Assembly: GCA_963715245.1 (NCBI GenBank) | Contig: CAVQRM010000001.1 | Coordinates: forward strand, 1,051,797-1,115,796 | Reading direction: 5' to 3' | Source of the DNA: an uncultured Chloroflexia bacterium | GTDB lineage: Bacteria > Chloroflexota > Limnocylindria > Limnocylindrales > CSP1-4 | Length of the DNA stretch: 64,000 nucleotides | Shown here: one piece after another, positions 5,308 to 40,839 of the stretch | Numbering within the stretch: the stretch's first letter is position 1 | Layout: every line of letters starts with the position of its first letter | The notes under the pieces: model-generated | What the model was told of the DNA's origin: nothing | Seen by the model: only the letters and a program-made list of their open reading frames with translations | Database searches by the model: none | Translations under genes and position numbers: made by a program

Positions 5308-5338
5308 GCGCCGGGCAGCGTCCGATCGAGGTCCGCGC

Positions 5339-14886: not shown

Positions 14887-14893
14887 CGAACGG

Positions 14894-14936: not shown

Positions 14937-15024
14937 CATCGCACAACCCGGTTCAGGGTCGACGTCGACCGTCGGCGCCCTCGTCAGAGCTGTCGGGCGC
15001 GCCCCCGCACGCGGATGGCGGACG

Positions 15025-21110: not shown

Positions 21111-24100
21111 TCAGTCGCCCCGCCCGGCCGAGAGCCTGGCGGCGTTGACCGTCACGGTCACCCGGCGGTACGTGCCACGACGGCCGGCGATGGCGGCAGT
21201 TGCCTCGCGGCTCAGCTCCATCCCGTCCACGATCTCGACTCCACCGTCCGAGTGATCGAGGCGGATCGACGGGTGGTCGCCAAGCTGGTAGCACACCGGC
21301 ACCTGGCAGCAGGTGAAGGCCAGGCTGGCCGCCGGCAGCTCCCAGGTGTCAAACGTCCCGTCGAGGCCCAGGCTCGTGAAGCGGTAGGGGATGTCGAGGA
21401 ACTCGTCACGGTGGAGCAGCCTCGGATCGAAGCGGAGCCGGCCGTCCCGTGCCTCGACGCCCAACTCGCCGAAGCGGATGAGGATGTCCTCCTTCGCCTG
21501 GCCGGTCATGCCGGGCTGCTGCGCGCCGCGGTGGCGCGGCGAGTGGGAGTGCGGATCCACGGGGAAGGCGCCGAACACCTCCGGCGTCTTGCGTGAGCCA
21601 AGACCCTCCCTCGCCTCGTCGTAGAAGCGGGCGAGGTCGGCGGCGATCTCCGGATCCCGGGCACGCAGACAGGATGCCTGCACCGTCAGCAGGAACTTCG
21701 AGCTCATGTGCCAGAACACGCTGCCGAGCCCTTCGAACATGAAGAAGCGGTCGCTCCGACCCGTGAACTCGTGGTGGGCGAACGTCGTCCGCCAGAGGTC
21801 CAGCACGGCATCGCGGGTCGCCGCGTCGACGCCGATGCGCTTGAGCTGGGCCTCCACGTCCCCACGCGTGCTCAGGTCGGCGTCAAAGTGCCAGCGGCCG
21901 TGCCGGTCCAACACGAACAACCGCTCGCTGCCGGCGGGCGGCGCGCCGTCGAGCGTGTTCCGCTCGAGGAATGGCGTGAGCTCCCGGTCCGGGTAGAGCA
22001 GGAACGTGCGCAGGTCGTCTCGCCACAGGTCGCTCTGGCGCAGCGCGCGCAGGAGGCCGAGTGCTTCGTCGTCGTCAAGAATGCCCGATTCCAGCACCGA
22101 CACCTGGCCTTCCAGCATGGGGCTCAGCCGGTCGATGGCTGCCCGGCTGTCCTCCACGCGCAGCACGTTGTAGCTGTGGTACAGCCCGTCCGGGCGGCGG
22201 TTCGCGCGGATCGTGCGATCCACGACCGGGCCTGCGGCCTCGAGCAGGGCGCGCGCGGTGGAGAGCGGCATCGAGACGAGGTCGCCGAGGTCCCCCGCAT
22301 GGACGGCCGATCGATGCTCCTCGCCGGCCTCCCCGAGCGCGGACATGAGGGCGAGCCGACGCGCATCGTCGATCTCGCCGGGAACCTCGCGGAGGATCGC
22401 CGTCACGCGCTCCACCAGGCGCACCACGGACGCCGAAACCGGCGCGGCGCCGGCGGTGGGGACCACGTCCGACAGCAGCTGCAGGTAGCGACGCATCGCC
22501 GCCACGGTCACCACGGACAGGCCCCAGCCGGCGAGGGCGTTGTTCGCGTCGTTCCACTCCGGGCGCTGGGTGTTGAGCCAGATGCCGCCATCGGGAACGA
22601 GGTTGGTGAGCTTCGTCAGCAGGGGGACGAGCAGCTTCTCGCACAGCGAGACGAGCCGGACCTCGCCCTGGTCGTCCGCCAGGAGCTTGCCGTCCGCGCC
22701 CAGGTCGCGGGCGCGGCCCACGAGCGCCCGGTGCAGGGACTTGTCGAACGCGATCGACTCGCGCGGGTCGTCGAGCAGCTCCCGGAAGCCGTCGATCCGG
22801 TACGGGACCCGGGTGTAGGCATACCCGAGCTCACCAAGCCCGGCGGCGAGGTGCCCGGGCTGCCAGCGCTCGAGGCTCTCGAGGAGCCGGTTCAGGTAGA
22901 CAACCTGGTGATCGCCCCAGTACCCGATGTGGCTCCATGGGTCACGCTCGTCGGGCACCTCCCAGTCGCCGCCGTCGCGCGTGATTCGATAGGGGTTGTA
23001 GCCGTCTGCGGTGCTGGCGTCCAGGAACACGGCAATGAACTGCGGCAGATAGCCGGGGTAGCTCCGGCCCAGCGCCTCCCAGTTCTGGAAGATGTCCCGC
23101 CAGTTGCCCTCGTAGCCGAACGCCGGTCGTCCGAGCTCGTCCTTGAGCCGGATGTTGAAGCGATTCCACGGCCGGCTCGGGTCCCCGTGCCGGCGGCTGA
23201 AGGTGAGCGGCAGGTACGTACGCAGCAGCCTCGAGAGCTGCGCATCGTCACGGTCGGCGGCCGCGCGCTGCAGCTCGTCGATCGGGACGGACGTCGGGAG
23301 CCCGGCAAGCCAGTCCGCATGGCGCTTGTAGACGGTGCGGTTGTGGCGCCGGAGGTGGTCGGCGACGTCTGCGACGGGCGCATCGTACGTGCCGTCGAAG
23401 GTCCCGCCCCGCATCGCGTTGTACAGGACGCTCGCGACGTGATGGGCGGTGGCAGCCTCGTCGGCCGTCTGCTGGAGGGCGTCGCCGCTGGCGACGCGCC
23501 GGAGGATCCCGGCCCGGCTCTCGTCGAGCGCGGCCCGCAGGTCGCGGGCAAGCTCGTCGGGGGCGTCGAAGCGGTCGCGAAGGTCCACCAGCGCTGCGTG
23601 GTCGAGGCCGGTGTCCGCGACGGTCGACCAGCCGATCCGTGAGCCGCCGTCGAGGTGGGCCTGATCCGCCACCAGGTAGGCGCCCAGCTCGCCGCGAACC
23701 TCGGCCTCGGGCCGGACAGGGGCGCCGCTGCGGAACGCGTCCGCCTGGCGGTCGCTCAGCAGGATGACCGGGTCCGCGTGGCCGACCGTCCAGGCGGCCG
23801 CGGCGCGGAGCGACTCGGAGGGCTCCGGACGATCCGAGATCGCCGCGTTGAGGGTGAAGATCCCGAGCGGCGTCCCCGGGACCAGCTCGTGGCGCATGTA
23901 GGCCGCGGCGAGGTAGCTGAGACGCGCGTAGACCTCCTGGGACACGCCAGGCGGGATCAGGTGGTGCCACCCGTCGAGATAGCGGATCTCGGCGGGCGCG
24001 TCCCGCAGGTTCTCGAGCTCGACATCGCGCACGAGACCGAAGCGATCACAGGCAGCGAGGGTCGCCCGGAACCGCAGGCCAAGGTCGTGGTTGATCTCCT

Positions 24101-24512
24101 CATACACGAGGCTCGTCCCGAGGATGCTCTTGTACAGGTTGCGGGTCACCGCGTACGCCCGGTCGCCGTCCCCCCACGGCTGCCAGAGCGAGGTGATCCC
24201 GTCGCGGGTCACCAGCAGGATCGTGCGTGCCCCGCTCGTGTCGGCGTGCTCGAGGATCTTGTCCACCGTCTGGTACGGGAACATCGCCAGGTCGGCGTTC
24301 CTGCGACCTGCGGTGAACGGCCCGTTCGAGCCCGCAAACAGCCACAGGTCGCCATCGCTGACCACGTTCATCAGGAACGGCGCCATGCCGTCCACGTTGA
24401 GGATGCGGGCGCAGCGCTCGCCGCCGATCGTCGCGAACCCGCCCTCGACGGCTTCGTCGACCGCGTGGAGAACGGCATCCCCGAGGTGGATCTCGGGGTC
24501 GGTGATGATCAC
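21111..24512 (-). CDS. GH149-family beta-1,3-glucan phosphorylase
   Basis: 1133 aa; motifs I recognise as GH149: YLPLTFSRRHGDPSRPWNRF, YEGNWRDIFQNWEAL, TADGYNPYRI, IGYWGDHQ, GIWLNTQRPEWNDANNAL, EGLGS..WHM, GAQQPGMTGQ; lies next to two GH16 genes. Confidence 0.82.
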   Translation of the reverse strand: MIITDPEIHLGDAVLHAVDEAVEGGFATIGGERCARILNVDGMAPFLMNVVSDGDLWLFAGSNGPFTAGRRNADLAMFPYQTVDKILEHADTSGARTILLVTRDGITSLWQPWGDGDRAYAVTRNLYKSILGTSLVYEEINHDLGLRFRATLAACDRFGLVRDVELENLRDAPAEIRYLDGWHHLIPPGVSQEVYARLSYLAAAYMRHELVPGTPLGIFTLNAAISDRPEPSESLRAAAAWTVGHADPVILLSDRQADAFRSGAPVRPEAEVRGELGAYLVADQAHLDGGSRIGWSTVADTGLDHAALVDLRDRFDAPDELARDLRAALDESRAGILRRVASGDALQQTADEAATAHHVASVLYNAMRGGTFDGTYDAPVADVADHLRRHNRTVYKRHADWLAGLPTSVPIDELQRAAADRDDAQLSRLLRTYLPLTFSRRHGDPSRPWNRFNIRLKDELGRPAFGYEGNWRDIFQNWEALGRSYPGYLPQFIAVFLDASTADGYNPYRITRDGGDWEVPDERDPWSHIGYWGDHQVVYLNRLLESLERWQPGHLAAGLGELGYAYTRVPYRIDGFRELLDDPRESIAFDKSLHRALVGRARDLGADGKLLADDQGEVRLVSLCEKLLVPLLTKLTNLVPDGGIWLNTQRPEWNDANNALAGWGLSVVTVAAMRRYLQLLSDVVPTAGAAPVSASVVRLVERVTAILREVPGEIDDARRLALMSALGEAGEEHRSAVHAGDLGDLVSMPLSTARALLEAAGPVVDRTIRANRRPDGLYHSYNVLRVEDSRAAIDRLSPMLEGQVSVLESGILDDDEALGLLRALRQSDLWRDDLRTFLLYPDRELTPFLERNTLDGAPPAGSERLFVLDRHGRWHFDADLSTRGDVEAQLKRIGVDAATRDAVLDLWRTTFAHHEFTGRSDRFFMFEGLGSVFWHMSSKFLLTVQASCLRARDPEIAADLARFYDEAREGLGSRKTPEVFGAFPVDPHSHSPRHRGAQQPGMTGQAKEDILIRFGELGVEARDGRLRFDPRLLHRDEFLDIPYRFTSLGLDGTFDTWELPAASLAFTCCQVPVCYQLGDHPSIRLDHSDGGVEIVDGMELSREATAAIAGRRGTYRRVTVTVNAARLSAGRGD

Positions 24513-24572
24513 GCGTCCAACTCCTGGTGCTGTCTCCCGTCGTCGACGCCGGCGGGCTGCACCGCCAGCGAG

Positions 24573-24609
24573 ACCCGCGAGTGGTCCGGACGGGCGGCCA
24601 CTCGCGGGT
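24573..24609. terminator. Intergenic stem-loop between the large GH16 gene and GH149
   Basis: ACCCGCGAGTGG...CCACTCGCGGGT, 12-bp inverted repeat. Confidence 0.55.
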
Positions 24610-24668
24610 TTCCGGTCGTCTACGGCGCCTCGTCGGCGTCGTCGGCCGGCTTGCGACCGAACGTGTGG

Positions 24669-27600
24669 TCAGCCGCCCCCGAACGCCACGTCGTCGAAGT
24701 AGTAGGTCTTGGCGCCCGCGGTGGCCCCGGTCACCCCGAAGTTGAAGAAGATCGACGCCTTGTTGTAGGTGTAGGCCAGGTTGAGCGCGGCGGTGCCGGC
24801 GGCCTGGTTGGCGAAGTTGAAGGTCAGCGTCTGCCAGCCGGCAGCCGTGGTCACCGTGGCCTCGGTCTCGACCGACTTGGTCGGGTCCGCGGCGTCCTCC
24901 ACCTTGAGCCGGACCTGGATGCCCGCGTCGGGCGACCAGACCCGCACCGTCATCGTCGTCGCCGACGCGGTGAACGGGATCGCGGGGACCGAGAAGTTCG
25001 GGCCGGTGGACACCGTGGTCCCGGCCCACAGCTCGGCCGTGGCCGACTTGAGGACCCTCGCGACCTTGTTGGCGGCATTGGTGGGATCGGCCACGACGGT
25101 CGAGTCGTCGGCCCCGCCGAAGCCGGTCAGGGTGTACGTGACCGCGGCATCGTCGAAGGTGATCGTGTCCCAGCCGGTCGGCGGCGGGGGCGGGGCGCCG
25201 CCCCCGAACGCCACGTCGTCGAAGTAGTAGGTCTTGGCGCCCGCGGTGGCCCCGGTCACCCCGAAGTTGAAGAAGATCGACGCCTTGTTGTAGGTGTAGG
25301 CCAGGTTGAGCGCGGCGGTGCCGGCGGCCTGGTTGGCGAAGTTGAAGGTCAGCGTCTGCCAGCCGGCAGCCGTGGTCACCGTGGCCTCGGTCTCGACCGA
25401 CTTGGTCGGGTCCGCGGCGTCCTCCACCTTGAGCCGGACCTGGATGCCCGCGTCGGGCGACCAGACCCGCACCGTCATCGTCGTCGCCGACGCGGTGAAC
25501 GGGATCGCGGGGACCGAGAAGTTCGGGCCGGTGGACACCGTGGTCCCGGCCCACAGCTCGGCCGTGGCCGACTTGAGGACCCTCGCGACCTTGTTGGCGG
25601 CATTGGTGGGATCGGCCACGACGGTCGAGTCGTCGGCCCCGCCGAAGCCGGTCAGGGTGTACGTGACCGCGGCATCGTCGAAGGTGATCGTGTCCCAGCC
25701 GGTCGGCGGCGGGGGCGGGGTGCCGCCCCCGAACGCCACGTCGTCGAAGTAGTAGGTCTTGGCGCCCGCGGTGGCCCCGGTCACCCCGAAGTTGAAGAAG
25801 ATCGACGCCTTGTTGTAGGTGTAGGCCAGGTTGAGCGCGGCGGTGCCGGCGGCCTGGTTGGCGAAGTTGAAGGTCAGCGTCTGCCAGCCGGCAGCCGTGG
25901 TCACCGTGGCCTCGGTCTCGACCGACTTGGTCGGGTCCGCGGCGTCCTCCACCTTGAGCCGGACCTGGATGCCCGCGTCGGGCGACCAGACCCGCACCGT
26001 CATCGTCGTCGCCGACGCGGTGAACGGGATCGCGGGGACCGAGAAGTTCGGGCCGGTGGACACCGTGGTCCCGGCCCACAGCTCGGCCGTGGCCGACTTG
26101 AGGACCCTCGCGACCTTGTTGGCGGCATTGGTGGGATCGGCCACGACGGTCGAGTCGTCGGCCCCGCCGAAGCCGGTCAGGGTGTACGTGACCGCGGCAT
26201 CGTCGAAGGTGATCGTGTCCCAGCCGGTCGGCGGCGGGGGCGGGCGCGCCCTCAAGGCGGACCTGGTCGAGCAGGACCGGGCCACGGGCGCCCTTCGGCA
26301 CCTCGAAGCCCAGGCTTCGAACGGCGGTGAGATCCGGCGACGCTCCCGTCGCCCCCTCGAAGGCCGACAGCGGGATGGTGATCTTCTGCCAGCCCGTGAA
26401 GGAGTCGGTGAACGTCGCGCTGAACGTGGCCGGGCTCGGTGCAGGCTGGTACAGGCGGACGTAGTCGACCAGGGTCTGGTTCGGGAAGGCCGTCGCAGGA
26501 TCGACGGTGCCGCCGAAGTTGCCGCCGACGGCCACGTTGAGCAGCAGGTAGAAGGGGTGGTTGAAGACCCACTCCTTGCCCTGCAGGAAGGCATCCGAGG
26601 GAGTGGCGGTGAAGTACGGGACGTTGTCGAGATACCAGACGATCCGGTCCGGCTGCCACTCGACTGCGTAGGTGTGGTAGGTGTCGGCGACCGGCCGGCC
26701 CAGGTCGACGACCTTGCCGTAGCTCGCCCCGCCGGAGTACCCGGGGCCATGCAGGGTGCCGAACACCTGGTCGGGCGCTCGCCCCACGTGCTCCATGACG
26801 TCGATCTCGCCCGTCTGCGGCCAGCCGACCCGGTCGATGTCGGTGCCGAGCATCCAGAACGCGGGCCACAGGCCGGCGCCCGTCGGCACCTTGACGCGGG
26901 CCTCGACCCGGCCGTAGGCCACCTCGAACCGGTCCTTGGTCACCAACCGCGCCGAGGTGTACTTGCACGGGCCGTAGGAGCATTGCAGCGATCCGTCGGC
27001 GGCCTTGGTGGTGATCACCAGGTTGCCCTTGCCGTCGGTGGCGGCGTTGGTGCCGCCCTCGGTGTAGTACTGAAGCTCGTCGTTGCCCCAGCCCGGGATG
27101 CCGTAGGCGGTGCCGTCGCCGACCTGGTTGGCCCAGCTGCTCGTGTCCGGTGCCGCGCCACGCTTGGTGTCGAACTCGTCGCTCCACGCCAGCTGCCATT
27201 GCGCGGCCGGGATGCCGGACCCGGCTTCGTCGTTGGCGAGGTTCACGGTGATGTCCGTGCCCTCGTTCCGGCCGTAGTACCAGAAGCTCAGATCGGTGGG
27301 GTTGCTCCAGTCCTGTGCGATCGGGAAGGTGCGGTCGAACGAGTAGGGGCCCTTCTTCGTCGTCTGATCGCCGACCTGCAGGACGTGCTCCCAGTCGCCC
27401 TGGCCGGGCAGGGCCATGGCGCTGCCGGACGCGAACTCGGGGTTGGCCAGCTTCGTCTTGTTGCCGGCCCCCCAGAGGTAGGGGAATGTCTCGAAGTCGT
27501 CGAGCAGGGTTGCGTCGTACAGCTCGTCGTCGAGGATGTTGACGCGCGCGATCGGCGGCAGCCCCATCGCCGCGCCGCCGGTCGGGTTGGACAGCTCGAC

Positions 27601-28551
27601 GAGCACACTGCGCTCACCCTGGTGCTTGCCGTCGTCGATCGTCTGCACGGTGAACGACTGCTGGGTGACGTTGGACGGGAAGGTCAGGGTGCCCGAGATC
27701 GGTTCCACGTAGTCACGGTTCGCGGTCGCGGTCCCGATCGTGGACGCGTACTCGACCGTCACAGGGCTGCTCGAGGGCTTGCTGAGCTTGGCGGTCATCG
27801 TTGCGATGGCGCCCTCGGTCACGTTGTAGTTGAGCGTGCTGAAGCCGACGGTCAGGGGCCTGACCGGGGCCACACCGTAGACCGCCGCGTCATCGACGTA
27901 GTAGGTCTGCGGGGCAGGCGTCGTGATCGTGCCCAGGGCCCAGCCGTGCACCTCGGTCAGGCCGAAGCCGTCGTTGGGCGCGCCGTTGCCGATCTCCTTG
28001 CGGGACAGGCTCGCGAACGGGATCTCGATCTTCTGCCAGCCGCTGAAGTTGTCCGGGAAGCTGGTCGACCAGCGCTCGGCGTCGTCCTTGATCGAGCCGG
28101 GGTTGCGGTTGTCGAGCACGTCCACGAACAGGGTCGTGCCGCTGTTGTTGCCATGCAGCCAGAAGGAGATCCCCGCGTAGGCGCTCCAGTCCTGGGTGAC
28201 CCACGCGTTGACCGCGCCGTTCTCGAAGGCGTGGGCGAAGCCCGCGAAGGAGATGACGTTGAGATCCAGCTTGAGCACGTTGTTGCCGCTCGAGGCGCCG
28301 GGCCGGGAGTCGGCCGGGGCGCCCGATGTCGTTGCGATGGCGACGCTGGTGGCCGGGTTCGGGTCCTCGAACGTGTTGAACCCGATCGCGACCCCGTTGG
28401 GGTCGACGCCGGCCGGGAGCCCGGCCTCGAAGTCGTCGACGATCGGGAGCGTCGCCGCGAGCACCGGGCTCGCGGGTGGGACGAGACCCGCACCGATCAC
28501 GACGGCCGCCAGGCCTGCGACCAATAGGGATCTGATCGTGCGCGGTGTCAT
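24669..28551 (-). CDS. Secreted multimodular GH16 endo-beta-1,3-glucanase (CBM11-like, Calx-beta, GH16 inside a split CBM11-like module, 3x CBM-like repeat); one frameshift near 26245
   Basis: GAGGAGG RBS; signal peptide MTPRTIRSLLVAG; GH16 WSDEF, WGNDELQYY, GLWPAFWMLG, WPQTGEIDVMEHVG; removing one base near 26245 restores the GGCGCCCCGCCC linker seen between the repeats. Confidence 0.88.
24672..26244. repeat. Three tandem 525-bp repeats (175 aa each), essentially identical
   Basis: Units start at 24672, 25197 and 25722; the only internal difference I found is C25196 vs T25721 in the Pro-rich linker. Confidence 0.95.
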
Positions 28552-28583
28552 CCGGACCTCCTCGAGTGGGTGGCTTCCTCGGG

Positions 28584-29574
28584 TCATGGCGCGGTCGCCT
28601 TGTACAGGCGCACGTAGTCGACCGCCATCGGGTTCGGGAATTCCCTGTCGCCTCGGACCGGACCGCCCAGGTTCCCACCGACCGCGACGTTGAGGATCAT
28701 GAAGAACGGCTGGTCGAAGACCCAGTCGTTCGGGGCGACGTCGGCCGGCGTGGCCTCGTGGTACTTCACGCCGTCGAGGTACCAGGCGATGCGGCCGGGA
28801 CTCCAGTCGATGGCGAAGACATGGAAGTCGTCCGCCACCGGCGTGCCGAGATCGACGCTGACCCCGAAGCTGCTGCTGCCCGAGTACCCGGGACCGTGGA
28901 TCGTGCCCGTGATCTCGGTCGGGCGTCGGCCCACGAACTCCATCACGTCGATCTCGCCGCAGGCCGGCCAGGGCGTGGCATCGATGTTCGTGCCGAGCAG
29001 CCAGAAGGCCGGCCACAGCCCGAAGTCGCCGGGCACCCTGATGCGCGCCTCGAGGCGCCCGTACTCGATCTCGAACCGGCCCTTCGTCTGGATCCGTGCG
29101 GACGTGTGCTCGCACGGGCCGTACCAGCAGGTCTGGGATCCGTCGCCGGGGCGAACAGTGATCAGCAGGTTGCCCTCGCCGTCGGTGGCAACGTTCTCCG
29201 GCCGGTCCGTGTAGGACTGGCGCTCCTGGTTGCCCCAGCCCTGGAGCCCCACCGCACTGCCGTCGCCGACGTCGTATCCCCACGTTGCCGGATCGGGCGG
29301 AGACCCCGCCGGCCCGTCGAACTCGTCACTCCAGGCGAGCTCCCACGCCGCCGGGTCGATGCTCGCCGGGGCGGTCGGGAGCACGCTCGGGACCTGCGTC
29401 GGCGAGGCCGATGCCGAGGGCAGGGCGGTCTGATCGGACACGCTGGGCGACAGCGCCGCCTGCGTCCGTCGCGGCCGGCAGGGGATCGGGGGTGCCGGAT
29501 GAACCACAGGCGCTCACGAGGCCCACCACGAGTGCGGCCAGGATGAGCCGGGTGCCCACGGACGGTTCACGCAC
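28584..29574 (-). CDS. GH16 beta-1,3-glucanase lipoprotein, frameshifted near 29470
   Basis: Lipobox LVSAC in the 29326..29574 frame; Ser/Pro linker; WSDEF, GLWPAFWLLG, WPACGEIDVMEFVG, ILNVAVGG. Confidence 0.88.
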
Positions 29575-31883
29575 GGGTGCCCCGCAACGCGTGCTCGATG
29601 GCCCAGATCGCCAGCGGCCGCAGGTACATCGTGGCGCGGAAGTTCCCGTCCACGTCGTACGCCTCGGGCGTCCGGAAGCGGTACCCGCGCCGCTCGATGA
29701 TGCGCTCCACGCCTTCCGCCGTCTGCCACGCCTCCGCGGTCAGGCCACGACCCATCATGAAGGCCGCGAGCGCCCAGGTGGTCCCGACCCACACCTCCTG
29801 CGACTGCTCGCTGGAGGTGTCGACGCCACCGTCCGGCCGCGCGCCGTTGACCGCCCCCATCCAGCCGTCACCAAAGCCGCGGACGTTCCGCTCGAAGACG
29901 GTCCGGAGCGCCGTGTCCACGTGCTCGGCCGGGACGAGCTCGCCCAGGCCCGTGGCGTCCGCCCACCACTGGCCGGCCAGCTGGTCCGCCATGATCGAAT
30001 CGGCGGACGGCCCGCCGCCGGCGTCGTACCGGTACGTGTCGCCGCCCCACAGTCGTGCCTCGAACGCCGGCCGGGCTCGCTCCATGGTGTCGCGCAGCCA
30101 CGCGACCGTCGCGTCGTCCCCCATCCGCTCGCCCATCGCGATCGCGGCCCTGAGCGCCGCCAGCCAGAGCGATCCGCCATACGCGCTCGGCCCGAGCATC
30201 GGCCACGTGTCGTATGTCTGGTCCGGGACGCCGTCATGCTCGGGCAGGCCGTCGCCGTCACGGTCGAACGCGGCGACGTAGTGCATCGCTCGCACCACGG
30301 CCGGCCACGCCTCGGCCACCAGCCCCTCGTCACCGAGGAGCTCGACCGTCTGCCACACGAGCAGGACGAACTTCGGGTTGAGATCCTTCCAGCCGTTCAC
30401 GTCCTGCAGGTGGTACGTGTTGAGCGTGACGAACGGGTCCTCCGCCGGCCCGCCGACGTCGTGCGGTAGGGCGCCCGCGACCTTGCGCACCGCGTGGCCC
30501 CCGGTCGCCCACACGGGCACCACCTCCGGGTCGTCCACGTCCACCGTGGCCACGAAGTCGCGGATCACCCGCTTCGCCAGCTCGGGCCACAGCTGGACGA
30601 GCGCGAACGACGCGTAGAAGTAGACGTCGAGCGTGTTGTAGAACGGGTAGTCGAAGCACTCGAGCAGGGCGAACGGGCCCGAACCGTCCCGCCGCACGCC
30701 ATCAGCGTCGTGGTCCGCCCAGATGGTGCCGCCGTCCACGAGGTAGTAGAGCTCGTTGCACAGCGCGGCCCGGTACCAGTCCGGGCGACCCGGGGCCTCG
30801 AGCACGCCGCCATGCCAGGCGTCGACCTCGTCCTGCCACGCCACGCGGTGGGCGAGCCCCTCGGCCGCGATGGCAAGTGCCTCGGTGCCCGTGGTGCCGA
30901 AGTAGCGCGTGTGGCGGCGGTGCCAGCGGCGGCCGGCGTCGAACGCCATGACCGGGAAGTCCCAGGCGAGCGAGAACGCGACGGTGCGCGTCTCTCCCGG
31001 CGCGAGGACGAACGTGGCCGCGAGGGCAGCACCGATCGTTTCGCCGGGTCGGCTGGGCGTCGGGTCGTCGACATCGTCGAGGCATCCGTCCGCCGAGAAG
31101 TCGGCCCAGACGTCGGCGCCGTCGTCCGGGTCGAACCGGCTGCGGGTGCTCAGGCGGACGCCCGCGGCGGCTTCTGCCGCGATCGCGAACGTGCCCGCCC
31201 ATGCCTCGTCGGCGGCCTCGGCCGGCCCGGCCAGCACGACGCCGGTCAGCTCGTCCCTTCGGACGGTTCGGTTGTGATGGCCTCCCGCCCGGTCGCGGCC
31301 TGCCCAGTGCCCCACGAGGTTCTGCCAGGTGAACATGAGGCCAACGGTGAGCGTTTCAGGCCCCGGATTCTCGGCGGTCCACTCGAGCACGCCGACGGGG
31401 TAGCTGCTCTCGCGGTCGTTGCCGGGGATGACCGGCGACAGCTGGCGCTGGCGCAGGCGGACCGGCAGCGCCGGCCAGTCGTACGCGAACCAGGCGTTCG
31501 GGAACAGCGCGTGATACGTGCCGGCCCCGGGCGGCAGGTCCCAGCTCCATGACCTGAGCGTCTCCGGACGGATCGTGCTGAGCACGTGGGCCGCGGATCG
31601 ACCGGCGCCTGACGTGTACACCGAGAACTGGCAGGCCGGGATGGACTCGAAGTGATGACGGCCCGCATCGATGTGCCAGCGGGCGAAGTCGCCCCGCGGC
31701 GTCCGGCCGATGCTTCCCGACCCCAGCCCGCCCATCGGCACGCCGCCCCACGGGCCGTCATCGATGATGCGTCTCGTGGGTCACGTGCGAGCGCCCGGGG
31801 TCCGCGGCGCCGACGCCGATCCCGCGGCGCCAGGCGACCTGCGGAATGCCGTGGGCGGCAGGGGCACGCTCCACGCTGGTCAC
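29567..31883 (-). CDS. GH116 beta-glucosidase (GBA2-like), frameshifted near 31765
   Basis: DDGPWGGVPMGGLGSGSIGR, SSYPVG, NELYYLVDGGT, LECFDYPFYNTLDV, WKDLNPKF, PDQTYDTW, IMADQLAGQW, FRTPEA, MYLRPLAIWA; GTG overlaps the LacI stop. Confidence 0.92.
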
Positions 31884-32928
31884 GCGGCGCGACTCGACTC
31901 GCGGACGACGAGCTCCGTCGCGAACACGACCCGGCTCGTCGCATCGCCCGGGTTGTCGATCCGGTGGAGAAGCAGACGTGCCATCTCGCGGCCCATGGCC
32001 TCGATCGGCTGGCGCACGGTCGACAGCTCCGGCCGGGTCGTCAGGGCCAGCGGGCGAGTCGTCGAAGCCAACCACGGCCACGTCGTCGGGAATGCGGCGC
32101 CCACTCTCCTGGATGACCCGCATCACGGTCGCCGCCATCGAGTCCGAGGCGGCAAACACCGCGTCGAGCCCGGGCCGACGCTCGAGCAGCTCGCGCATGG
32201 CATCGGCCGCGCTCACCAGGTGGTAGTTGCCCGCGGCCTCGAGACCCGCGTCGAGCGGTCAGTCCCGCCTCCCGCAGGGCGTCGCGGTACCCCTCGAGCC
32301 GATCGATGCCCGACGACATGTCCAGGGTCCCGTGGATGGTCGCCACCGAGCGCCGCCCGGTGGCGAGCAGGTGCGCGACCGCCATCCGGGCCCCGCCACG
32401 GTTGTCGCTGTCCACGTGACTGACGCTTCCCTCGCCCAGCTGCCGCCCGGACAGGACGATCGGCACGCCGATGCTGTCGAGGTGGGCCGGAAGCGGGTCG
32501 TTGCCGTGCGGGCCGACGAGGATCGCGCCGTCAACGTGACCCGCTTCGAGGTACCGCTCCACGCGCGCCTCCTCGCGCGCCGTCTGGGCCATCAGGAGCA
32601 CGAGCTGGATGTCGCGAGCGGCGAGCCCCTCGCTGATCCCGTCGAGCAGGCGCCCGAAGAACGGGTCAGCGAACAGGATGCCCGCCGGCTCCATGATCAC
32701 GACCCCGATGGAGTCGCTCCGGCGCGTCATCAGGCTCCGGGCTGCCCGGTTGGGGACGTACCCCAGGAGCCTGACTGCGGCCGCCACGGACGCCCGCGCT
32801 TCCGGGCTGACGCGCTCGCTGTCGTTGACCACGCGGGACGCCGTGGCGCGCGAGACGCCCGCAGCCCGCGCGACGTCGTCGATCGTGACGCTCCGCCGCC
32901 CTCGTGGGTGAGCCCTCGGCGCAGCCAT
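31880..32928 (-). CDS. LacI-family regulator (CelR/CebR-like), frameshifts near 32265 and 32050
   Basis: TIDDVARAAGVSRATASRVVN, LGYVPNRAARSL, FADPFF, DAVFAASD, IPDDVAVVGFDD, LSTVRQP. Confidence 0.9.
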
Positions 32929-33811
32929 CAGCCCTTGACTGCGCCGGCGGTGACGCCGCCGATGATCCAGCGCTGGGCGATCACGAAGAAGATGATCATC
33001 GGCAGCGTCATCATGAGCACGGCGGCCGCCAGGAGCGGCCAGTCGTTGCCGTAGACGCCGTTGAACACGATGAGCCCTCGGGTGATCGGGTAGAAGTCCT
33101 CGGTCGTCAGGTAGATCGTCGCAAGCACGAGCTCGTTCCACACGCCGATGGCGTGCAGCACGGCCACGGTGGCGATCGCCGGTGCTGCCAGGGGAAGCAC
33201 GATCGTCAGCACGTAGCGCAGGTAGCCGCAGCCCTCGATCGCGGCCGCCTCGTCGAGCTCGATCGGAATGGTGCGGATGTAGTTGACCAGGATCACGATC
33301 CCGATCGGGTTCACCACGAACAGCATGATGTAGCCGATCGGATTGTTGTACAGGCCGAGCCGCAGGATCAGCTGGAACTGCGGGATCAGGGCGGCCGGCA
33401 GGAACAGCGCGATGAGGAACAGGGTGAACAGCGGCCCTGCCCCGCGGACGAAGCGCCGCGCGATGGCGAGGGCGAGGAACGTGCCCGTCACCACGAACAC
33501 GACCGTCGACACGACCGTGTAGATCACGGTGTTGAGCATGTACCGCGGGAAGTTCGCCTTGTCCCAGGCCTCGAAGAAGTTGTCGAGGCTGAACGACGTG
33601 GGCAGTGATGTCGCGTCCTTTGTGAACTCGGGCAGGGTCTTGAACGCCGTCATGAACAGCATCACCAAGGGCCCGATGTAGAAGACCATCAGCAGGATGA
33701 GGAACGCGTAGGCGACGAGTCGGCCCGGATCGGGACGCCCGAACCGGCGACGTGCCGGCTGCGGGTGACTCGAGGTCGTCGATCGAACGTGATCACCGCC
33801 ATGTCGTTCAT
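32928..33811 (-). CDS. Carbohydrate ABC transporter permease (CUT1); probable N-terminal frameshift near 33790
   Basis: IPIELDEAAAIEG EAA loop, VWNEL, YGNDWPLLAA, GGVTAGAVKG; no in-frame start upstream of the TM region. Confidence 0.88.
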
Positions 33812-33813
33812 CG

Positions 33814-34740
33814 TCATCCCAGCAACCGGGCCTCTCTACGCCGCAGCAGGTACTGCGCGGTCAATCCGATGATGAGGACGACGATGAACAGGACGATCGA
33901 GGCCGCAGCGGCATAGCCCTGGCGCAGCGACACCACGGTGCTGCCGCCGGTCGCCCCGAACCCCGTCGCGTAGACGAGGTACCCGAGGACGGTCGTCGTC
34001 GGCCGGTAGCCGGTCAGCACGAGGAACAGCTGCCACGCCTGGAGCGACCCGATGATCGTGAGCACGAGGTTGGTGTTGACCGCCGGGGTCAGGAGCGGCC
34101 AGGTGACCTCACGGAACACCTGCCATCGGCCGGCCCCATCGATCCTGGCAGCCTCGTAGACCTCCGTGGGGATCGTGGCAAGCCCCGCGAGGAAGATCAG
34201 CATCGTGATGCCGAGGTTCGACCAGATCTGCACCGCGGCGACCCAGAAGAAGGGCTCCATGGTTGCGCCGCCGAGGAACTCCGGCTGCACGCCGAAGATC
34301 TCGAACAGGTTGGCCATCGGCCCGCCGAGCGGGTACAGGAACAGCGTCCAGATGAGGCCCTGGATCGTCACGCCCAGGATCACCGGCAGGAAGATGATCG
34401 TTCGGAAGAACTTCGTCCCGCGCAGCTTCTGGTTCAGGAGGACCGCTACCAGCAGCCCGAGGAAGAACTGGGGGACCGTGACGGCGATCGAGAACAGGAA
34501 CGTCCGGAGGATCGTCTCCCAGTTCTCTCGCGAGGCCGCGCCGAGGAAGAGGAACTCGTGGTAGTTCTCGAGACCGATCCAGTTGACCGGCAGGCCAGGC
34601 AGGCCGGACGCGTCCGTGAGCGAGTACACGGCCGTCGCCAGCGAGGGTCCTAGTGCGAAGACGATGTAGAGGAGGAGCGCCGGCAGCAGGAGCAGGTAGG
34701 GTGCCGCTCTGGATCTGCCGCTCCCGAAGTGATACTCCAT
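33814..34740 (-). CDS. Carbohydrate ABC transporter permease (CUT1)
   Basis: WIGLENY, FFRTIIFLP, LAGLATIPTEVYEAARIDGA, GYAAAASIVLF. Confidence 0.92.
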   Translation of the reverse strand: MEYHFGSGRSRAAPYLLLLPALLLYIVFALGPSLATAVYSLTDASGLPGLPVNWIGLENYHEFLFLGAASRENWETILRTFLFSIAVTVPQFFLGLLVAVLLNQKLRGTKFFRTIIFLPVILGVTIQGLIWTLFLYPLGGPMANLFEIFGVQPEFLGGATMEPFFWVAAVQIWSNLGITMLIFLAGLATIPTEVYEAARIDGAGRWQVFREVTWPLLTPAVNTNLVLTIIGSLQAWQLFLVLTGYRPTTTVLGYLVYATGFGATGGSTVVSLRQGYAAAASIVLFIVVLIIGLTAQYLLRRREARLLG

Positions 34741-34780
34741 GGACCTGCGCCCTCCTCTGTCCGAGCGAGTCGGGTGACGT

Positions 34781-34808
34781 GGAGCCCGACCCGTCCGGGT
34801 CAGGCTCC
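34781..34808 (-). terminator. Stem-loop downstream of the solute-binding protein gene (mRNA-stabilising or partial terminator)
   Basis: Minus strand GGAGCCTGACCC-GGAC-GGGTCGGGCTCC. Confidence 0.55.
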
Positions 34809-34836
34809 ACGGCCGCGAGTAGATCGATGGGCGGGA

Positions 34837-36207
34837 CTAGTTGGCCTGGAGTCCCGAGTCCAGGTCGGCCTGGGCCTGGGTGGCCGCCGCCTGTGGATCG
34901 TCGAATTCGCCGAATGGCTTGAACAGGTTGTTGGGGAGGATCGGCCCGGCCGCGTACACGCCCGCGCCCTTCGGCCCGATCCAGTACTGCTCGAACCCGA
35001 CCTTGAAGTCCCCGAGGTAGGGGGCCAGCTCCTGGCCGATCTTCGCGTTGAGGGTTGCACCCGACTGCGTCGGGATGAACTGGACGGCGTCCACGAAGGC
35101 CTGGTAGTTGGCCGGCTCCGAGAAGTCCGCCAGCCAGGCGAGGGCGGCGTCCTTGTTCGGCGCGTTGCCGGCAACCGAGAAGACCATGTCGTACTTGCCG
35201 AACATGTACTTGTTGTTGGCAGCGTCGTCGCTGCCGGGGAACGGGACATAGCCCCACTCGAAGGCCGGCTCGGCCGCCTCGATGGCCGCCGCGTACCAGC
35301 TGCCACCCGTGAACATCGCGACCTCGCCGGAGGCGAAGCGGCCGGGGGCGGCGTCGCCGGCGATGCCGCTGGCGCCCTGCTCCATCAGGTCGCGGTTATA
35401 GGTCTGGTACTTCTCGAACAGAGGCAGCATGTCCGGGTTGGTCCACTTGACCGACCCGTCCCAGAGGCCCTGCGCGAGCCCGGCCTGGTCCGGGAAGTTG
35501 GCGCCCGCGAGGCCGTACCCCCCGACGAAGATCGGCCAGCCGTCCTTGCCGCCGGCGGTCATGCACGGGATGCTGGCGGCCTTGAGCGTGTCGCACGCCG
35601 CCACCAGCTCACCGAACGTGGTCGGCAGCGCGATGTTGTTGGCGGCCAGCAGGTCCTTGTTGAAGTAGATGCCGCTGTACACGACACGACCCAGGCCCAC
35701 GCCGTAGACCTTGCCGTTGTACGTGGTCGCGTCGGCGATCGCCACATCGTCGTAGTTCTTGACGAATGCCTGGTCCGTGATGTCGGCCAGGAGCGTCGCG
35801 TCGATCAGCTGCTGCCAGGAAGGCGGATCCACGTTCGTCATGTACGGCTGGACCGCGTTCGAGAAGCCGGTCAGCGTGGGGACCACGACGTCGACGTCGC
35901 CCGCGGTGAGGCGGGTCTGCACGGCCGTCGGGAGATCGTTGGCGTTGACGACGGCCATATCGACCGTGACGCCGGGGTGAGCCGCCTCGAAGGTCTTGTT
36001 GAACTCCGTGAGGAAGTCAACGAGGGGCGGGTTCTGGTGGATCAGGATTCGGACGTTGCCCGAAAGCTGCGGGGCCTCGCTCGCAGCGGCGCTCTCGCCG
36101 GGTGCGGCCGTCGGCCCCGCCGTTGCGGGCGCCGTCGTCGCCGTCGAGCCGCCGCAGGCTGCGACCGCGAGCGCGGCCACCGCCGAGATGGCAAGCAGTC
36201 TTCGCAT
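34837..36207 (-). CDS. Oligosaccharide ABC substrate-binding lipoprotein (SBP_bac_1/8)
   Basis: Lipobox AVAACGG; FEAAHPGVTV, GKVYGV, IYFNKDL, PTTFGELVAAC, FASGEVAM. Confidence 0.9.
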   Translation of the reverse strand: MRRLLAISAVAALAVAACGGSTATTAPATAGPTAAPGESAAASEAPQLSGNVRILIHQNPPLVDFLTEFNKTFEAAHPGVTVDMAVVNANDLPTAVQTRLTAGDVDVVVPTLTGFSNAVQPYMTNVDPPSWQQLIDATLLADITDQAFVKNYDDVAIADATTYNGKVYGVGLGRVVYSGIYFNKDLLAANNIALPTTFGELVAACDTLKAASIPCMTAGGKDGWPIFVGGYGLAGANFPDQAGLAQGLWDGSVKWTNPDMLPLFEKYQTYNRDLMEQGASGIAGDAAPGRFASGEVAMFTGGSWYAAAIEAAEPAFEWGYVPFPGSDDAANNKYMFGKYDMVFSVAGNAPNKDAALAWLADFSEPANYQAFVDAVQFIPTQSGATLNAKIGQELAPYLGDFKVGFEQYWIGPKGAGVYAAGPILPNNLFKPFGEFDDPQAAATQAQADLDSGLQAN

Positions 36208-36370
36208 GGTCGTGATCTGGTGCCTCCTCCAGGGAGTGGGTCGCCCACTCCGGTCTGCGCCGGCATCACGGCCGGCTTGATGGCCACGGATCTGTCCCGC
36301 GACGGACCCGGGCACCGATGCTCGGGTGTCGGCACTGGCGGGGCCCACGCGGTCCGTTGATCCGAGTCCA

Positions 36371-36384
36371 TGAGAGCGCTCTCA
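36371..36384. promoter_or_regulatory. LacI operator 1 (CelR/CebR-like)
   Basis: Perfect palindrome TGAGAGCGCTCTCA, similar to the actinobacterial CelR/CebR box TGGGAGCGCTCCCA. Confidence 0.8.
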
Positions 36385-36484
36385 CGCTCGTGAGCGTACG
36401 ATACAATGGCTGTCAATAGGCACACAAGGCCGGTATTTTCGCGTCCGGACGGCTGCCGGATCCGATCGCTAGCGGTGTAGTGCA

Positions 36485-36498
36485 TGGGAGCGCTTTCA
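36485..36498. promoter_or_regulatory. LacI operator 2 (CelR/CebR-like)
   Basis: TGGGAGCGCTTTCA in the same divergent intergenic region. Confidence 0.7.
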
Positions 36499-36598
36499 CA
36501 CATCATGAGCAGAACCGAACCACCTGGCTCCCGGGACCGGACGGCCGGTCCTCGGAGCTCACGATCGACTGCACCGACGGAGCGAGGTCGCCAGCTGC

Positions 36599-37516
36599 AT
36601 GCGCACATCCACTGACTCGCTCCCGGGACATGTGCTCGTGACCGGCGCTGCCGGCCTCCTCGGCCGGGTGGTCGTCGACCAGCTGCGCGGCATCGGGGTC
36701 GGCGTGACGGCGATGCTCCAGTATCCGGGCGATTTCGACGCAGATCGTGTGGTCGTCGGCGACATGACCGACGCGGCGTTCGTCCGCGATGCCGTGAGCG
36801 GGGCGGACGCTGTCATCCACTGCGCCGCCCTCAAGGCGCCGATGATGGGCACGGCCGAGGCCGTGTTCTGTGGCAACGTGACCGGCACGTTCACGGTGCT
36901 CGAGCAGGCGGGCCTGGCCGGTATCCGCCGCGCGGTCGTCTCCAGCAGCTACTCGGTCCTTGGCCTGACGTTCGCGCCGACGATGCGTCATCCCGCCTAC
37001 CTGCCGATCGACGAGCAGGTCCCGCTCCAGGTCGAGGACCCGTATGCCCACTCCAAGCAGGTTGACGAGCTGAGCTCGGACCTGATGTGGAAGCGCTACG
37101 GCATGACGGTGGTGGCGCTCCGGTTCCCATTCCTCGGGGGCCTCGACAACACCATCCCGGACCGAGCCGCCCGGGTCGCCATCGATCCCGGGTTCGGTAC
37201 CGCCGCCAGGGAGTTCTGGACCTACCTCGAGACGCGGGACGCCGCGAGGGCGTGCGTGCTGGCGCTGACCGAGCCGCCCGCCGGCTGCCACGTCGTCTCG
37301 GTTGCCGCGCCGAACACCCTCGCGCCCTATCCGACCGAGCAGCTCCTGGCGGCCTATCACCCCGATGTGCCCCGTCGGCGCCCATTCCCGGGCCGGACCG
37401 CCCCGCTCGACCTGGCCAGGGCGCGTGACCTGCTCCATTTCAGTGCCGAGCTGCTGTGGGAGACCGAGCTGCGCGACTTCGATCCCGACGCGGTTCGCGA
37501 GAGCTCCCATGCCTGA
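36599..37516 (+). CDS. Extended SDR (NAD-dependent epimerase/dehydratase fold), possible sugar dehydrogenase
   Basis: VLVTGAAGLLG, DAVIHCAA, NVTGTFTVLE, SSSYS, YAHSK (YxxxK). Confidence 0.8.
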   Translation: MRTSTDSLPGHVLVTGAAGLLGRVVVDQLRGIGVGVTAMLQYPGDFDADRVVVGDMTDAAFVRDAVSGADAVIHCAALKAPMMGTAEAVFCGNVTGTFTVLEQAGLAGIRRAVVSSSYSVLGLTFAPTMRHPAYLPIDEQVPLQVEDPYAHSKQVDELSSDLMWKRYGMTVVALRFPFLGGLDNTIPDRAARVAIDPGFGTAAREFWTYLETRDAARACVLALTEPPAGCHVVSVAAPNTLAPYPTEQLLAAYHPDVPRRRPFPGRTAPLDLARARDLLHFSAELLWETELRDFDPDAVRESSHA

Positions 37517-37552
37517 CCGGACCGGCACCCGGATCGGGCAGTAGCGTCGGCC

Positions 37553-38441
37553 GTGCACCGCACCCTCGATGCGAGCCTGCTCGTGGACGCCCGAGCGGCG
37601 CTGGGCGAGGCGCCGCTCTGGGATGCGGACGACGCCAGCCTCGTGTGGGTCGACATCCTTTCCGGCCTCGTCTCCGTCACGTCCGCATCCGGTGAGCAGC
37701 GCGCCTCGTACGAGCTGGGCCATGCCGTCGGATCCGCGATGCCCGCCGCCGGGGGCGGCTGGCTGCGTTGCCGATGCGCTGGGCTTCACCTCGCTCCGGC
37801 GTGACGGCACCACGTCGATGCTCCTCGACGTCCTCGCGGACCGACCGGGCCTCCGTTTCAACGACGCCAAGTGCGACCCGATGGGGCGAGCGTGGGCCGG
37901 CACGATCGAGGCGGCCATGACCCCGGGGACCGGCACCCTGTACCGGCTCGATCCCGGGCCGGTCGCGACGCCCGTCCTCGGCGGCCTGACGGTCTCCAAC
38001 GGGCTGGGCTGGAGCCCGGACGCCCGCACGATGTGGTTCGCCGACTCGGCTGACCGCTTCATCCGCGGGTTCGACTATGAGCCGGAGCTGGGCCGACTTG
38101 GCGCCGGCCACCTGGCCATCGAGCTGCAGGCCACGGCGGGCAAGGCGGACGGCCTGTGTGTCGATGACGACGGGTATGTCTGGGTGGGCCTCTGGGGTGG
38201 GTCTGCCGTCCATCGCTACGCGCCGGACGGTCGGCTCGACACGATCGTGCGGGTGCCGGCGGCGCAGGTCACGAGCTGTGCCTTCGGCGGGTCCGACGGA
38301 TCGACCCTGTTCATCACGACCGCTCGTGTCGGCCTGTCGGCGGAGGCGCTGCAGCTGGAGCCGTATGCAGGCGGGCTGTTCGTGGTCGAGCCCGGCGTCA
38401 CCGGCCCGCCGGCCACGCCGTGGCGGCTCGACCCGGGCTGA
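37553..38441 (+). CDS. SMP-30/gluconolactonase family protein, frameshifted near 37770
   Basis: LGEAPLWD, LVWVDI, RFNDAKCDPMGRAWAGT, VSNGLGWSPD, ADGLCVDDDG, VTSCAFGG. Confidence 0.9.
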
Positions 38442-38496
38442 TCGCCATCAGCCGGCTGCCGCGGCACCCGGCCCAACAAACGGAGAGGATCGCACC

Positions 38497-39811: not shown

Positions 39812-39911
39812 CCAGTTCAGGAGGCGGCGAGTGGTCCCTCGGCAACCGGGAGCGTGGATCGGGGCACGGCCGACGGCCGCCGGGGGTCGCGCTCCCGCCT
39901 GGCGATCGAGA

Positions 39912-40839
39912 CTACGACGCTGACGACACCCGTTCCCGCAGCCACGCGTGCGCTCGCTCGACGTGCGCGCGGGCGAGGACGGTGTCCGGCGCCCAGACCT
40001 CGAAGCCGTGCGGCGCGCCCTCGACGACGTCCTCCTCCACCGCGACCCCGGCGGCCCGGAGGCGGTCCGCGTACGCGGCGTCCTCGTCGTGGAACAGCTC
40101 GATCGCGCCGTAGCCGATCCAGGCCGGCGGGAGTCCCGGAGCAGTCGTCGCGGCGCGCGGGCACGGCGTAGTCGGGCGGCCTCGCGGTGCCGGGCTCGTG
40201 CCCCAGGTACGACCGCCAGCCGAACCGGTTCCTGGCGTTGTTCCAGACGAAGTGGTCGACGACGTCGAGGTCGCGGCGTGCCGCGGTCCGGTCGTCCAGC
40301 ATCGGACAGAACAGGAGCTGGCCGGCGGGCTGGATACCCCCCTCGTCGTGCAGCCGCTGGGCGAGCGCGGCCGCGATGCCGCCGCCCGCGCTCTCGCCGC
40401 CGACGACGATGCGGGCCCGATCGACGCCGAGCGACGGGGCGTCGCGCAGGAGCGCGGCCCACGCCTGGTGGACGTCGTCGAGCGCGGCCGGATACGGGTG
40501 CTCGGGTGCCTTCCGGTACTCGGGTGACACGACGACGATGCCGACCTCGCGCGCGATCTCGGCGCACATCCGGTCGTTGACGATCGGACGCCCGATGACG
40601 AGCCCGCCGCCGTGGACGAACAGGAGGGCGCCGTCCGACCGGCGCGTCGCCGGCCGGTAGACGCGGAGCCCGCGCGCCAGGTCGGGCCGGTCCTCGACCG
40701 TGACCCCCTCGACCTTCGCCCCGGGCATGACCGCCATGAGCCCCGCGATCGCTCGCCGCCCGAGCGCTCGCTCGATCCCGATCGGCTTCGCCCAGCGCAG
40801 GCGCCCGCGCAGCTGTGGGGCGACGCGTTCGATGTCCAC
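39912..40839 (-). CDS. Alpha/beta hydrolase (GDXG/HSL-like esterase), frameshifted near 40138
   Basis: HGGG, YRKAPEHPYPAALDD, GESAGGG, PMLDDR, LPPAWIG..ELFHDE, GAPHGF. Confidence 0.9.

Follow-up and report, generated by a model that had tools for sequence, protein, structure and literature searches.

A predicted beta-1,3-glucan utilization operon with a GH149 phosphorylase in DNA of an uncultured Chloroflexia bacterium

We analyzed a 64,000-nucleotide stretch of DNA from an uncultured Chloroflexia bacterium (hereafter the window; contig CAVQRM010000001.1, positions 1,051,797 to 1,115,796, assembly GCA_963715245.1) and found on its minus strand a run of nine genes that we read as an operon for the use of beta-1,3-glucan (laminarin, curdlan, callose or fungal wall glucan), with a probability of roughly 0.72; the operon is real and coherent, and it most likely works as proposed below. 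Searches of Pfam and NCBIfam assigned the products to an SBP_bac_8 binding protein, two BPD_transp_1 permeases of an ATP-binding cassette (ABC) importer, a LacI-family regulator, a GH116 protein, two GH16 proteins and a GH149 protein (solved relatives were sought in the PDB). All gene-sized codon-biased frames at 21111-36348 lie on the minus strand, the G+C content is ~71% across the whole window, and in four places (permease 1/permease 2, permease 2/LacI, LacI/GH116, and small GH16/large GH16) the start codon of a gene overlaps the stop codon of the gene before it. An earlier interpretation made from the letters of the sequence (the sequence-only reading) had proposed such a minus-strand run with overlapping start and stop codons, two LacI operators at its head and no ATPase gene; all eight gene types are present in the order it gave, and its operators and missing ATPase were recovered as well (see below).

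Gene families, structural relatives and operators

A genome scan yielded 597 GH149 relatives, from which 79 loci were kept. The closest relative (locus L002, on a 1.4-Mb contig) comes from a metagenome-assembled genome (MAG) labelled “uncultured Chloroflexia bacterium”; it is syntenic for the whole locus bar the large GH16, at 76-93% amino-acid identity (for example, 85% for GH149, 85% for the binding protein, and 93% for permease 1). An actinobacterial origin, which the G+C content of ~71% might suggest, is improbable, the only close and syntenic relative carrying this Chloroflexia label.

The 1133-aa protein matched the NCBIfam equivalog NF058639.1 (GH149_beta_1_3) with 1248.1 bits, above the cut-off of 1150 and over profile positions 3-1134 of 1134, and its residues 16-1122 aligned with residues 33-1169 of the solved phosphorylase Pro_7066 (6HQ6_A; E = 5.1e-270). 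The active site of Pro_7066 comprises an RD motif, a WND motif with the catalytic D653, E951, and H959 (from passages of PMC6771811, the source of our residue list); counted on the 6HQ6 alignment, R470-D471, W651-N652-D653, E951 and H959 correspond to R472-D473, W653-N654-D655, E927 and H935 of the window protein. The GH149 assignment of the sequence-only reading is thus borne out by a profile match above cut-off, a full-length structural relative and conserved catalytic motifs. In Pfam, no family reached its cut-off for this protein (a sub-threshold HTH_23 match was seen, and no GH149 family was matched), and the protein has no signal peptide. The GH116 protein carries PF12215 (Glyco_hydr_116N) and PF04685 (DUF608) and matched TxGH116 (5BVU) with E = 3e-214; its E361 (in LLECFDY) and D511 (in QTYDTW) align with the TxGH116 nucleophile E441 and acid/base D593, respectively (PMC10167657).

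Both GH16 translations contain PF00722 and the catalytic motif E-x-D-x-x-E, in the form GEIDVME. The best PDB matches of the small GH16 are the beta-1,3-glucanases 3ATG, 2HYK, and 3AZX (best E = 1.8e-77), and the catalytic part of the large GH16 matched the laminarinase 3AZX with E = 1.2e-73. For the small enzyme, the catalytic open reading frame (ORF) spans 28584-29507 (307 aa), and a lipoprotein signal starts with GTG at 29559 and reads ...LVSAC; the large enzyme likely starts at ATG 28551, after GAGGAGG, and has a Sec-type signal. Lipoboxes are present on the binding protein and on the small GH16.

The large GH16 ends in three 525-nt tandem copies, whose only differences fall in the final two bases of the unit; such similarity suggests that the amplification is very recent, or that gene conversion or the assembly has made the copies alike. 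With phmmer, the tandem module gave a weak match to 8QX6 (E = 1.4e-4 over 100 residues), a PDB entry entitled “Novel laminarin-binding CBM X584” (CBM, carbohydrate-binding module). A structural model of the module, built from a 7-sequence alignment (pLDDT 80.8), retrieved 8QX6 at rank 1 in Foldseek (E = 3.5e-7), with TM scores of 0.65/0.69 and 28% identity. Judging from this model, each tandem unit is likely a beta-sandwich module resembling the laminarin-binding CBM X584. Laminarin-binding “CBMxx” repeats, which often accompany GH16_3, are known chiefly from Bacteroidota and seldom from Actinobacteriota (passages of 10.1101/2023.09.07.556657); these passages carry no PDB code, and we link CBMxx to 8QX6 by the title of the PDB entry. 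In another of the related loci (L007), the homologue of the large GH16 is a single 1239-aa ORF that includes one such module. The gene for the large GH16 is absent from L002, where the small GH16 is followed by a spacer and then by GH149.

The binding-protein gene starts at ATG 36207, preceded by GGAGGAGG, and the permeases gave MalG/UgpA-like matches in NCBIfam. No Pfam family for SusC, SusD or a TonB-dependent receptor was found in the 64 fragments of the window that made up our Pfam scan. Inverted repeats rich in G+C lie in the gap between the binding protein and permease 1 (Table 1) and at ~24560-24610, where 156 nt separate the large GH16 from GH149; RNA stabilization, attenuation, or termination without a T-run are conceivable roles. 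The terminator-like matches of our scan were no more numerous than expected by chance.

Two operators (O1 and O2; Table 1) stand at the head of the run and are the only two matches to TGRRAGCGCTYYCA in the 64 kb, where 0.17 would be expected (2 of 100 shuffles reached two matches). O1 is situated between the divergently oriented genes for the binding protein and an epimerase, and the first base of O2 is 29 nt past the last base of a TTGACA hexamer (36413-36418). L002 keeps the TTGACA hexamer and an identical O2 in the context CCTATTGACA, and has an O1-like site upstream of its binding-protein gene. Beside binding-protein or GH149 genes, the TGRRAGCGCTYYCA motif was found in 4 of the 79 loci, namely L002 and the three Acidimicrobiia loci L012, L028, and L049. 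In the Acidimicrobiia, the motifs come in clusters of two to three (6809-6822 and 8112-8125 in L012, 1150-1258 in L028, and 9740-9846 in L049), and the LacI proteins there are only ~38% identical to that of the window. The motif is a near-match to the 14-bp palindrome bound by the LacI-family repressor CebR of Streptomyces (TGGGAGCGCTCCCA; box taken from the accessible part of PMC4358012). The window regulator carries an HTH_LacI and sugar-binding domains (in Pfam, split over three frames); we infer that it represses the operon through O1 and O2 and that an imported oligosaccharide would relieve this repression.

The genes on the epimerase side share the O1 intergenic region with the operon. 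At 36599-40923, an NAD-dependent epimerase, an SGL gluconolactonase and an MR_MLE dehydratase-like enzyme are encoded on the plus strand, and an esterase on the minus strand; the epimerase and SGL genes are syntenic in L002 (L002 1-1760), at 80-82% identity. The same repressor might control these divergent genes, which could make up a pathway for sugar acids.

Table 1. Features of the operon and frameshifted genes elsewhere in the window (window positions).
Feature	Position	Strand	Basis or remark
Operator O1	36485..36498		imperfect 14-bp palindrome, + strand sequence TGGGAGCGCTTTCA, matches TGRRAGCGCTYYCA
Operator O2	36371..36384		perfect 14-bp palindrome TGAGAGCGCTCTCA
CUT1 solute-binding protein, lipoprotein	34837..36207	-	Pfam SBP_bac_8, signal MRRLLAISAVAALAVAAC
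96-nt gap between binding protein and permease 1	34741..34836	-	inverted repeat GTGGAGCC...GGCTCCAC, read from sequence
ABC permease 1 (MalF/UgpA-like), intact	33814..34740	-	Pfam BPD_transp_1
ABC permease 2 (MalG-like), frameshifted start	32928..33817	-	L002 alignment, BPD_transp_1
LacI-family repressor, three frames	31880..32928	-	Pfam LacI helix-turn-helix (HTH), Peripla_BP_1, Peripla_BP_3
GH116 beta-glucosidase, cytoplasmic (predicted)	29567..31883	-	Pfam Glyco_hydr_116N + DUF608
Small GH16 endo-beta-1,3-glucanase (predicted)	28584..29559	-	Pfam GH16, lipoprotein signal GTRLILAALVVGLVSAC
Large secreted GH16	24669..28551	-	signal peptide, CBM11-like modules, Calx-beta, GH16, three tandem 175-aa modules
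Three tandem 525-nt repeats, C-terminus of large GH16	24672..26246	-	523-524/525 bases identical
GH149 beta-1,3-glucan phosphorylase (predicted), cytoplasmic, intact	21111..24512	-	NCBIfam NF058639, PDB 6HQ6
Aminotran_3	3847-5207		at least 2 frameshifts, three frames
Permease	5300-6291		frameshifted
SGL gluconolactonase	37517-38438		frameshifted
MR_MLE enolase-family enzyme	38568-39808		frameshifted
Abhydrolase_3 esterase	39915-40923		frameshifted

Proposed function and substrate

In the pathway that we propose, the large secreted GH16 (with its CBM11-like and three laminarin-binding-type modules) and the small lipid-anchored GH16 would both cut the polymer outside the cell into laminari-oligosaccharides; the lipid-anchored CUT1 binding protein would pass these to the two permeases, with an ATPase encoded elsewhere; inside the cell, GH149 would release glucose units as glucose-1-phosphate, and GH116 would hydrolyze the leftover short beta-glucosides to glucose. 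A CebR-like LacI protein sitting on the two 14-bp palindromes would keep the operon off until an oligosaccharide inducer is present. This logic of hydrolysis, import and phosphorolysis, already put forward in the sequence-only reading, fits all of the family assignments, the conserved catalytic residues and the laminarin-binding-type module, as far as sequence can tell.

Not all of these components speak for beta-1,3 linkages: CBM11 modules, a CebR-like operator and a GH116 with cellobiose activity could serve for mixed-linkage or beta-1,4 oligosaccharides as well. The operon might instead be aimed at lichenan or cereal glucan (mixed-linkage beta-1,3-1,4-glucan) or at cello-oligosaccharides and use beta-1,3-glucan as a side substrate. 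The large GH16 carries CBM11-type modules, and the solved CBM11 entries are complexes with mixed-linkage tetrasaccharides; the operator resembles the CebR box, which responds to cellobiose; TxGH116 slightly prefers cellobiose over laminaribiose (kcat/Km of 178 and 113 mM-1 s-1, respectively, in the available part of PMC10167657); and a Blautia producta locus with GH16, an ABC importer and a phosphorylase acts on mixed-linkage glucan (passages of PMC10318527). However, both GH16 domains are nearest to laminarinases and not to lichenases, the triplicated module resembles a laminarin-binding CBM, and the characterized GH149 enzymes are so far beta-1,3 only (EgP1 is active solely on beta-1,3 oligosaccharides, and Pro_7066 is equally good on Glc to G6; accessible sections of PMC5827456). 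We therefore regard a mixed-linkage or cello-oligosaccharide target as improbable, and beta-1,3-glucan as the predicted substrate.

Apart from these components, several observations weigh against a beta-1,3-glucan operon of this kind. The substrate is predicted from sequence, and none of the solved proteins is closely related to the binding protein (best PDB E = 2.6e-16). Pfam detected no MalK/MsiK-type ATPase in the locus or among the 64 window fragments; the sole ABC_tran domains in the window, at ~6.4-6.9 kb and 61.5-63.2 kb, are components of two unrelated transporters, and no ABC ATPase domain occurs in the 67 ORFs scanned from seven related loci. The importer would have to draw on a shared ATPase encoded elsewhere in the genome, as we infer that it does; in Streptomyces, the CUT1 importer CebEFG draws its ATPase MsiK from a gene elsewhere. 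A consensus promoter scan gave no canonical sigma-70 promoter, and the Chloroflexia label of the closest relative is that of the L002 record and not the outcome of a phylogeny of ours; a monoderm host is plausible. Further, six single-base frameshifts interrupt five of the nine genes of the operon as read (permease 2, LacI, which has two, GH116, small GH16, and large GH16), and all detected frameshifts in the window are confined to 3.8-7.2 kb and 26.2-40.2 kb.

Frameshifts in the operon and the window

The sequence-only reading had called the locus complete, which does not hold for the sequence as read, given these frameshifts. The LacI gene is spread over three frames: the HTH and Peripla_BP_1 lie in one of them (32176-32907), and Peripla_BP_3 matches in the others (positions 60-115 at 31953-32258, and positions 115-167 at 31883-32122); the shifts fall near 32250 and 32055, each with one extra base compared with L002, whose LacI is a single 349-aa ORF. 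The GTG start of GH116 at 31883 overlaps the LacI stop (GTGA), and residues 1-38 (31883-31770) are in another frame than the rest, with an extra base at 31769 compared with L002. The ATG of permease 2 overlaps the stop of permease 1 (ATGA), yet the bulk of the gene is read in another frame: the shift, at ~33800, lies within about the first eight codons, the longest in-frame ORF is 32928-33689, there is no in-frame start upstream of 33689, and the intact permease 2 of L002 (295 aa) aligns in one frame from residue 7 at 33794. A shift at ~29450 puts the lipoprotein signal and the catalytic domain of the small GH16 into different frames, and the large GH16 loses its frame in a G+C run at ~26228-26243, directly before the three C-terminal modules. 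In five of the six cases the shift is one surplus base, and none of the six lies in a long homopolymer.

Outside the locus, where 55 of the 80 listed fragments were checked, at least six further frameshifts were evident from Pfam domains split between frames (Table 1); the stretches 7.2-26.2 kb and 41-64 kb showed none among the fragments scanned. A window taken to hold intact genes thus hides twelve or more frameshifts, which is a lesson in data quality.

It is likely, on comparison with L002, that the six frameshifts of the operon are assembly errors and not real lesions. L002 has frameshifts of its own at other positions (within L002 6558-13403): at least two in GH116, one in GH149 near 10566-10825, and one in the small GH16 just past the lipobox cysteine; its LacI and permease 2 are intact. 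That consensus errors arose in each of two draft assemblies is far more probable than that two lineages independently broke one well-conserved operon at different points, and by indels only. Identity to L002 is equally high before and after the shifts of the window (the three LacI pieces share 80%, 88%, and ~79%, the last hand-counted on the homologous part), third-position G+C stays at ~0.9 across them, and no nonsense codons or larger deletions were seen. The main point against assembly error is the uneven distribution along the window, which uniform random error would not predict.

If the frameshifts were real, the operon would be decaying or partly disabled: the repressor would be missing and permease 2 truncated, GH116 would lack its N-terminus and the small GH16 its export signal, the large GH16 would be cut off from its binding modules, and import would be slight or nil. 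Their number as read speaks for this possibility, as does their clustering in accessory sugar and transport genes, with none seen in the housekeeping genes gltX and proS or in the rest of 41-64 kb. We nevertheless consider a decaying operon unlikely, given the different frameshifts of L002 in the same operon, the absence of nonsense codons and larger deletions, the unchanged codon-position G+C and L002 identity past each shift, the predominance of single extra bases, and the intact state of GH149, the binding protein and permease 1.

Two further explanations were tried and set aside. Quadruplet or programmed frameshifting is not suggested by the contexts of the extra bases (ACGC, ACCG, and CCCG/GCTG), which have no common motif. 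A frameshift in the small GH16 common to the window and L002 was rejected as well, since the distances from the lipobox cysteine differ; the alignment of the linker DNA is too poor for a closer comparison.

Farther away in the window, 56504-64000 holds a separate L-arabinose cluster that is intact as read, with a LacI-family regulator (minus strand), an AraD-like class II aldolase, L-arabinose isomerase, a CUT2 binding protein, a double ABC ATPase and a permease. A major facilitator superfamily (MFS) transporter fused to a cyclic-nucleotide-binding domain is encoded at 10012-11907, and a 1010-aa AAA_16/LuxR-type regulator at 11923-14952 (minus strand).

Relatives, known systems and meaning

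The window proteins were compared with the 79 loci by tblastn (E <= 1e-10), and Pfam was run on 67 of 118 ORFs from seven of the loci; contig ends cut many loci, so that the counts are lower bounds. The full transporter trio, at 36-93% identity, is present in 8 of the 79 (L002, L012, L015, L022, L039, L049, L053, and L071); in eight loci the homologous CUT1 transporter adjoins GH149, with a GH16 gene in the stretch examined. GH16 occurs in at least 34 of the loci and GH116 in a single one, L002. For example, L015 and L022 (Anaerolineae) and L053 share the order binding protein, permease 1, permease 2, GH16, and GH149; in L012 and L049 (Acidimicrobiia), LacI, GH3 and a large CBM11-GH16 protein come in addition; L007 combines GH149 with LacI, a large GH16 and GH1; and in L071, from a Treponemataceae MAG, GH149 and a ROK protein come after the transporter. 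The combination of CUT1, GH16 and GH149 is therefore not rare, and among the 79 loci the addition of GH116 was seen only in L002.

In a FastTree phylogeny of GH149 (75 rows; five loci were dropped, three with stops inside the match and two short ones), the window and L002 group with two other Chloroflexota, beside Verrucomicrobiota and Planctomycetota, and stand well apart from the clades of Anaerolineae and Acidimicrobiia. On this tree, at least seven changes of the cassette label are required for nine rows (shuffled mean 8.6). A single origin of the cassette was rejected, since the cassette-bearing loci are scattered on the GH149 tree, although incomplete contigs weaken the change count; the scatter makes it seem that the transporter and GH149 were combined repeatedly. 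This agrees with the accessible text of PMC5827456, according to which GH149 genes became associated with clusters independently.

The same founding paper on GH149 (Kuhaudomlarp et al., 2018; PMC5827456, in the passages available) describes three kinds of cluster, and the window locus fits none of the three definitions. Type I, from Proteobacteria (Vibrio and others), is alike in that GH149 adjoins an ABC importer and a LacI- or AraC-type regulator, with a proposed cytoplasmic phosphorolysis of imported laminari-oligosaccharides; it differs in its cassette, which is of the Opp/Dpp type (a COG0747 binding protein with two permeases and two ATPases), and in lacking an extracellular laminarinase, whereas the window locus has a CUT1 importer (SBP_bac_8 and MalFG-like permeases) without an ATPase gene, two exported GH16 proteins, and GH116. 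Type II comprises a TonB-dependent receptor, GH16, and GH17, and the remaining contexts are polysaccharide utilization loci (PULs) of Bacteroidetes. The sequence-only reading had placed GH149 mostly in SusCD/TonB-type loci; the Type I clusters of ABC importer and LacI or AraC show that this view was too narrow.

Marine laminarin PULs of Bacteroidota combine SusCD and GH16_3 with GH17, GH30 or GH3, often with GH149 (excerpts of PMC5827456 and 10.1101/2023.09.07.556657). They resemble the window locus in their laminarinase-type GH16 proteins and GH149, and their repeated 8QX6-type modules, sometimes fused to GH16_3, may have a counterpart in the tandem modules of the window; in place of a SusC, SusD or TonB receptor, the window has a lipoprotein binding protein and ABC importer, and in addition LacI and a GH116 exo-glucosidase. 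The closest worked-out Gram-positive analogue is the mixed-linkage locus of Blautia producta, which likewise has a multimodular GH16 outside the cell (cell-anchored in that case), import by a binding protein and ABC transporter, and intracellular phosphorolysis with a beta-glucosidase, and which differs in its GH94 phosphorylase, mixed-linkage glucan substrate, AraC-type regulator, and CBM4 modules on the GH16 (passages of PMC10318527). The CebR/CebEFG-MsiK system of Streptomyces differs by sensing cello-oligosaccharides and by having neither a phosphorylase nor GH16; the window LacI is CebR-like by its operator.

GH149 was previously studied as enzymes and in marine Proteobacteria and Bacteroidota, and GH149 reads were assigned to Proteobacteria and Bacteroidota in PMC11919646. 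In the open full-text literature (subscription papers and supplements lie outside it), we found no description of a CUT1+GH16+GH149 locus, of a GH149+GH116 pairing, or of GH149 use by bacteria without outer-membrane SusCD. A beetle-gut survey reportedly mentions GH149 together with GH116. The sequence-only reading had held the composition to be undescribed; we, too, found no published match, and this kind of locus has probably not yet been studied at the bench, but clusters of ABC importer, LacI and GH149 are known, and in eight of the 79 loci a CUT1 transporter adjoins GH149. The locus type is common in public genomes, and what is particular here is the GH116 partner, the extra large GH16, the near-perfect module triplication, and an operator common to Chloroflexia and Acidimicrobiia loci.

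Whether these loci make up an undescribed, recurrent class of non-PUL beta-1,3-glucan loci, defined by an orthologous CUT1 transporter, exported GH16, and GH149, is in our view an evenly balanced question. If they do, the class would extend over bacteria without SusCD (Chloroflexota, Acidimicrobiia, a spirochaete MAG, and others); the CebR-like operator would be common to its Chloroflexia and Acidimicrobiia members; the glucosidase slot would be interchangeable, with GH116 here and GH3 or GH1 elsewhere; and the transporter would have been joined several times to unrelated GH149 lineages. The operon and its relatives offer parts for experiment: a candidate laminari-oligosaccharide binding protein that has no closely related characterized protein, a LacI protein with a defined operator, and a GH116 partner.

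If the loci do form such a class, the laminarin-binding module would have been freshly triplicated in the window strain, and Chloroflexia would consume fungal, algal or bacterial beta-1,3-glucan, sparing ATP through phosphorolysis. Together, the loci suggest a role for Chloroflexota and Acidimicrobiia in the turnover of beta-1,3-glucan.

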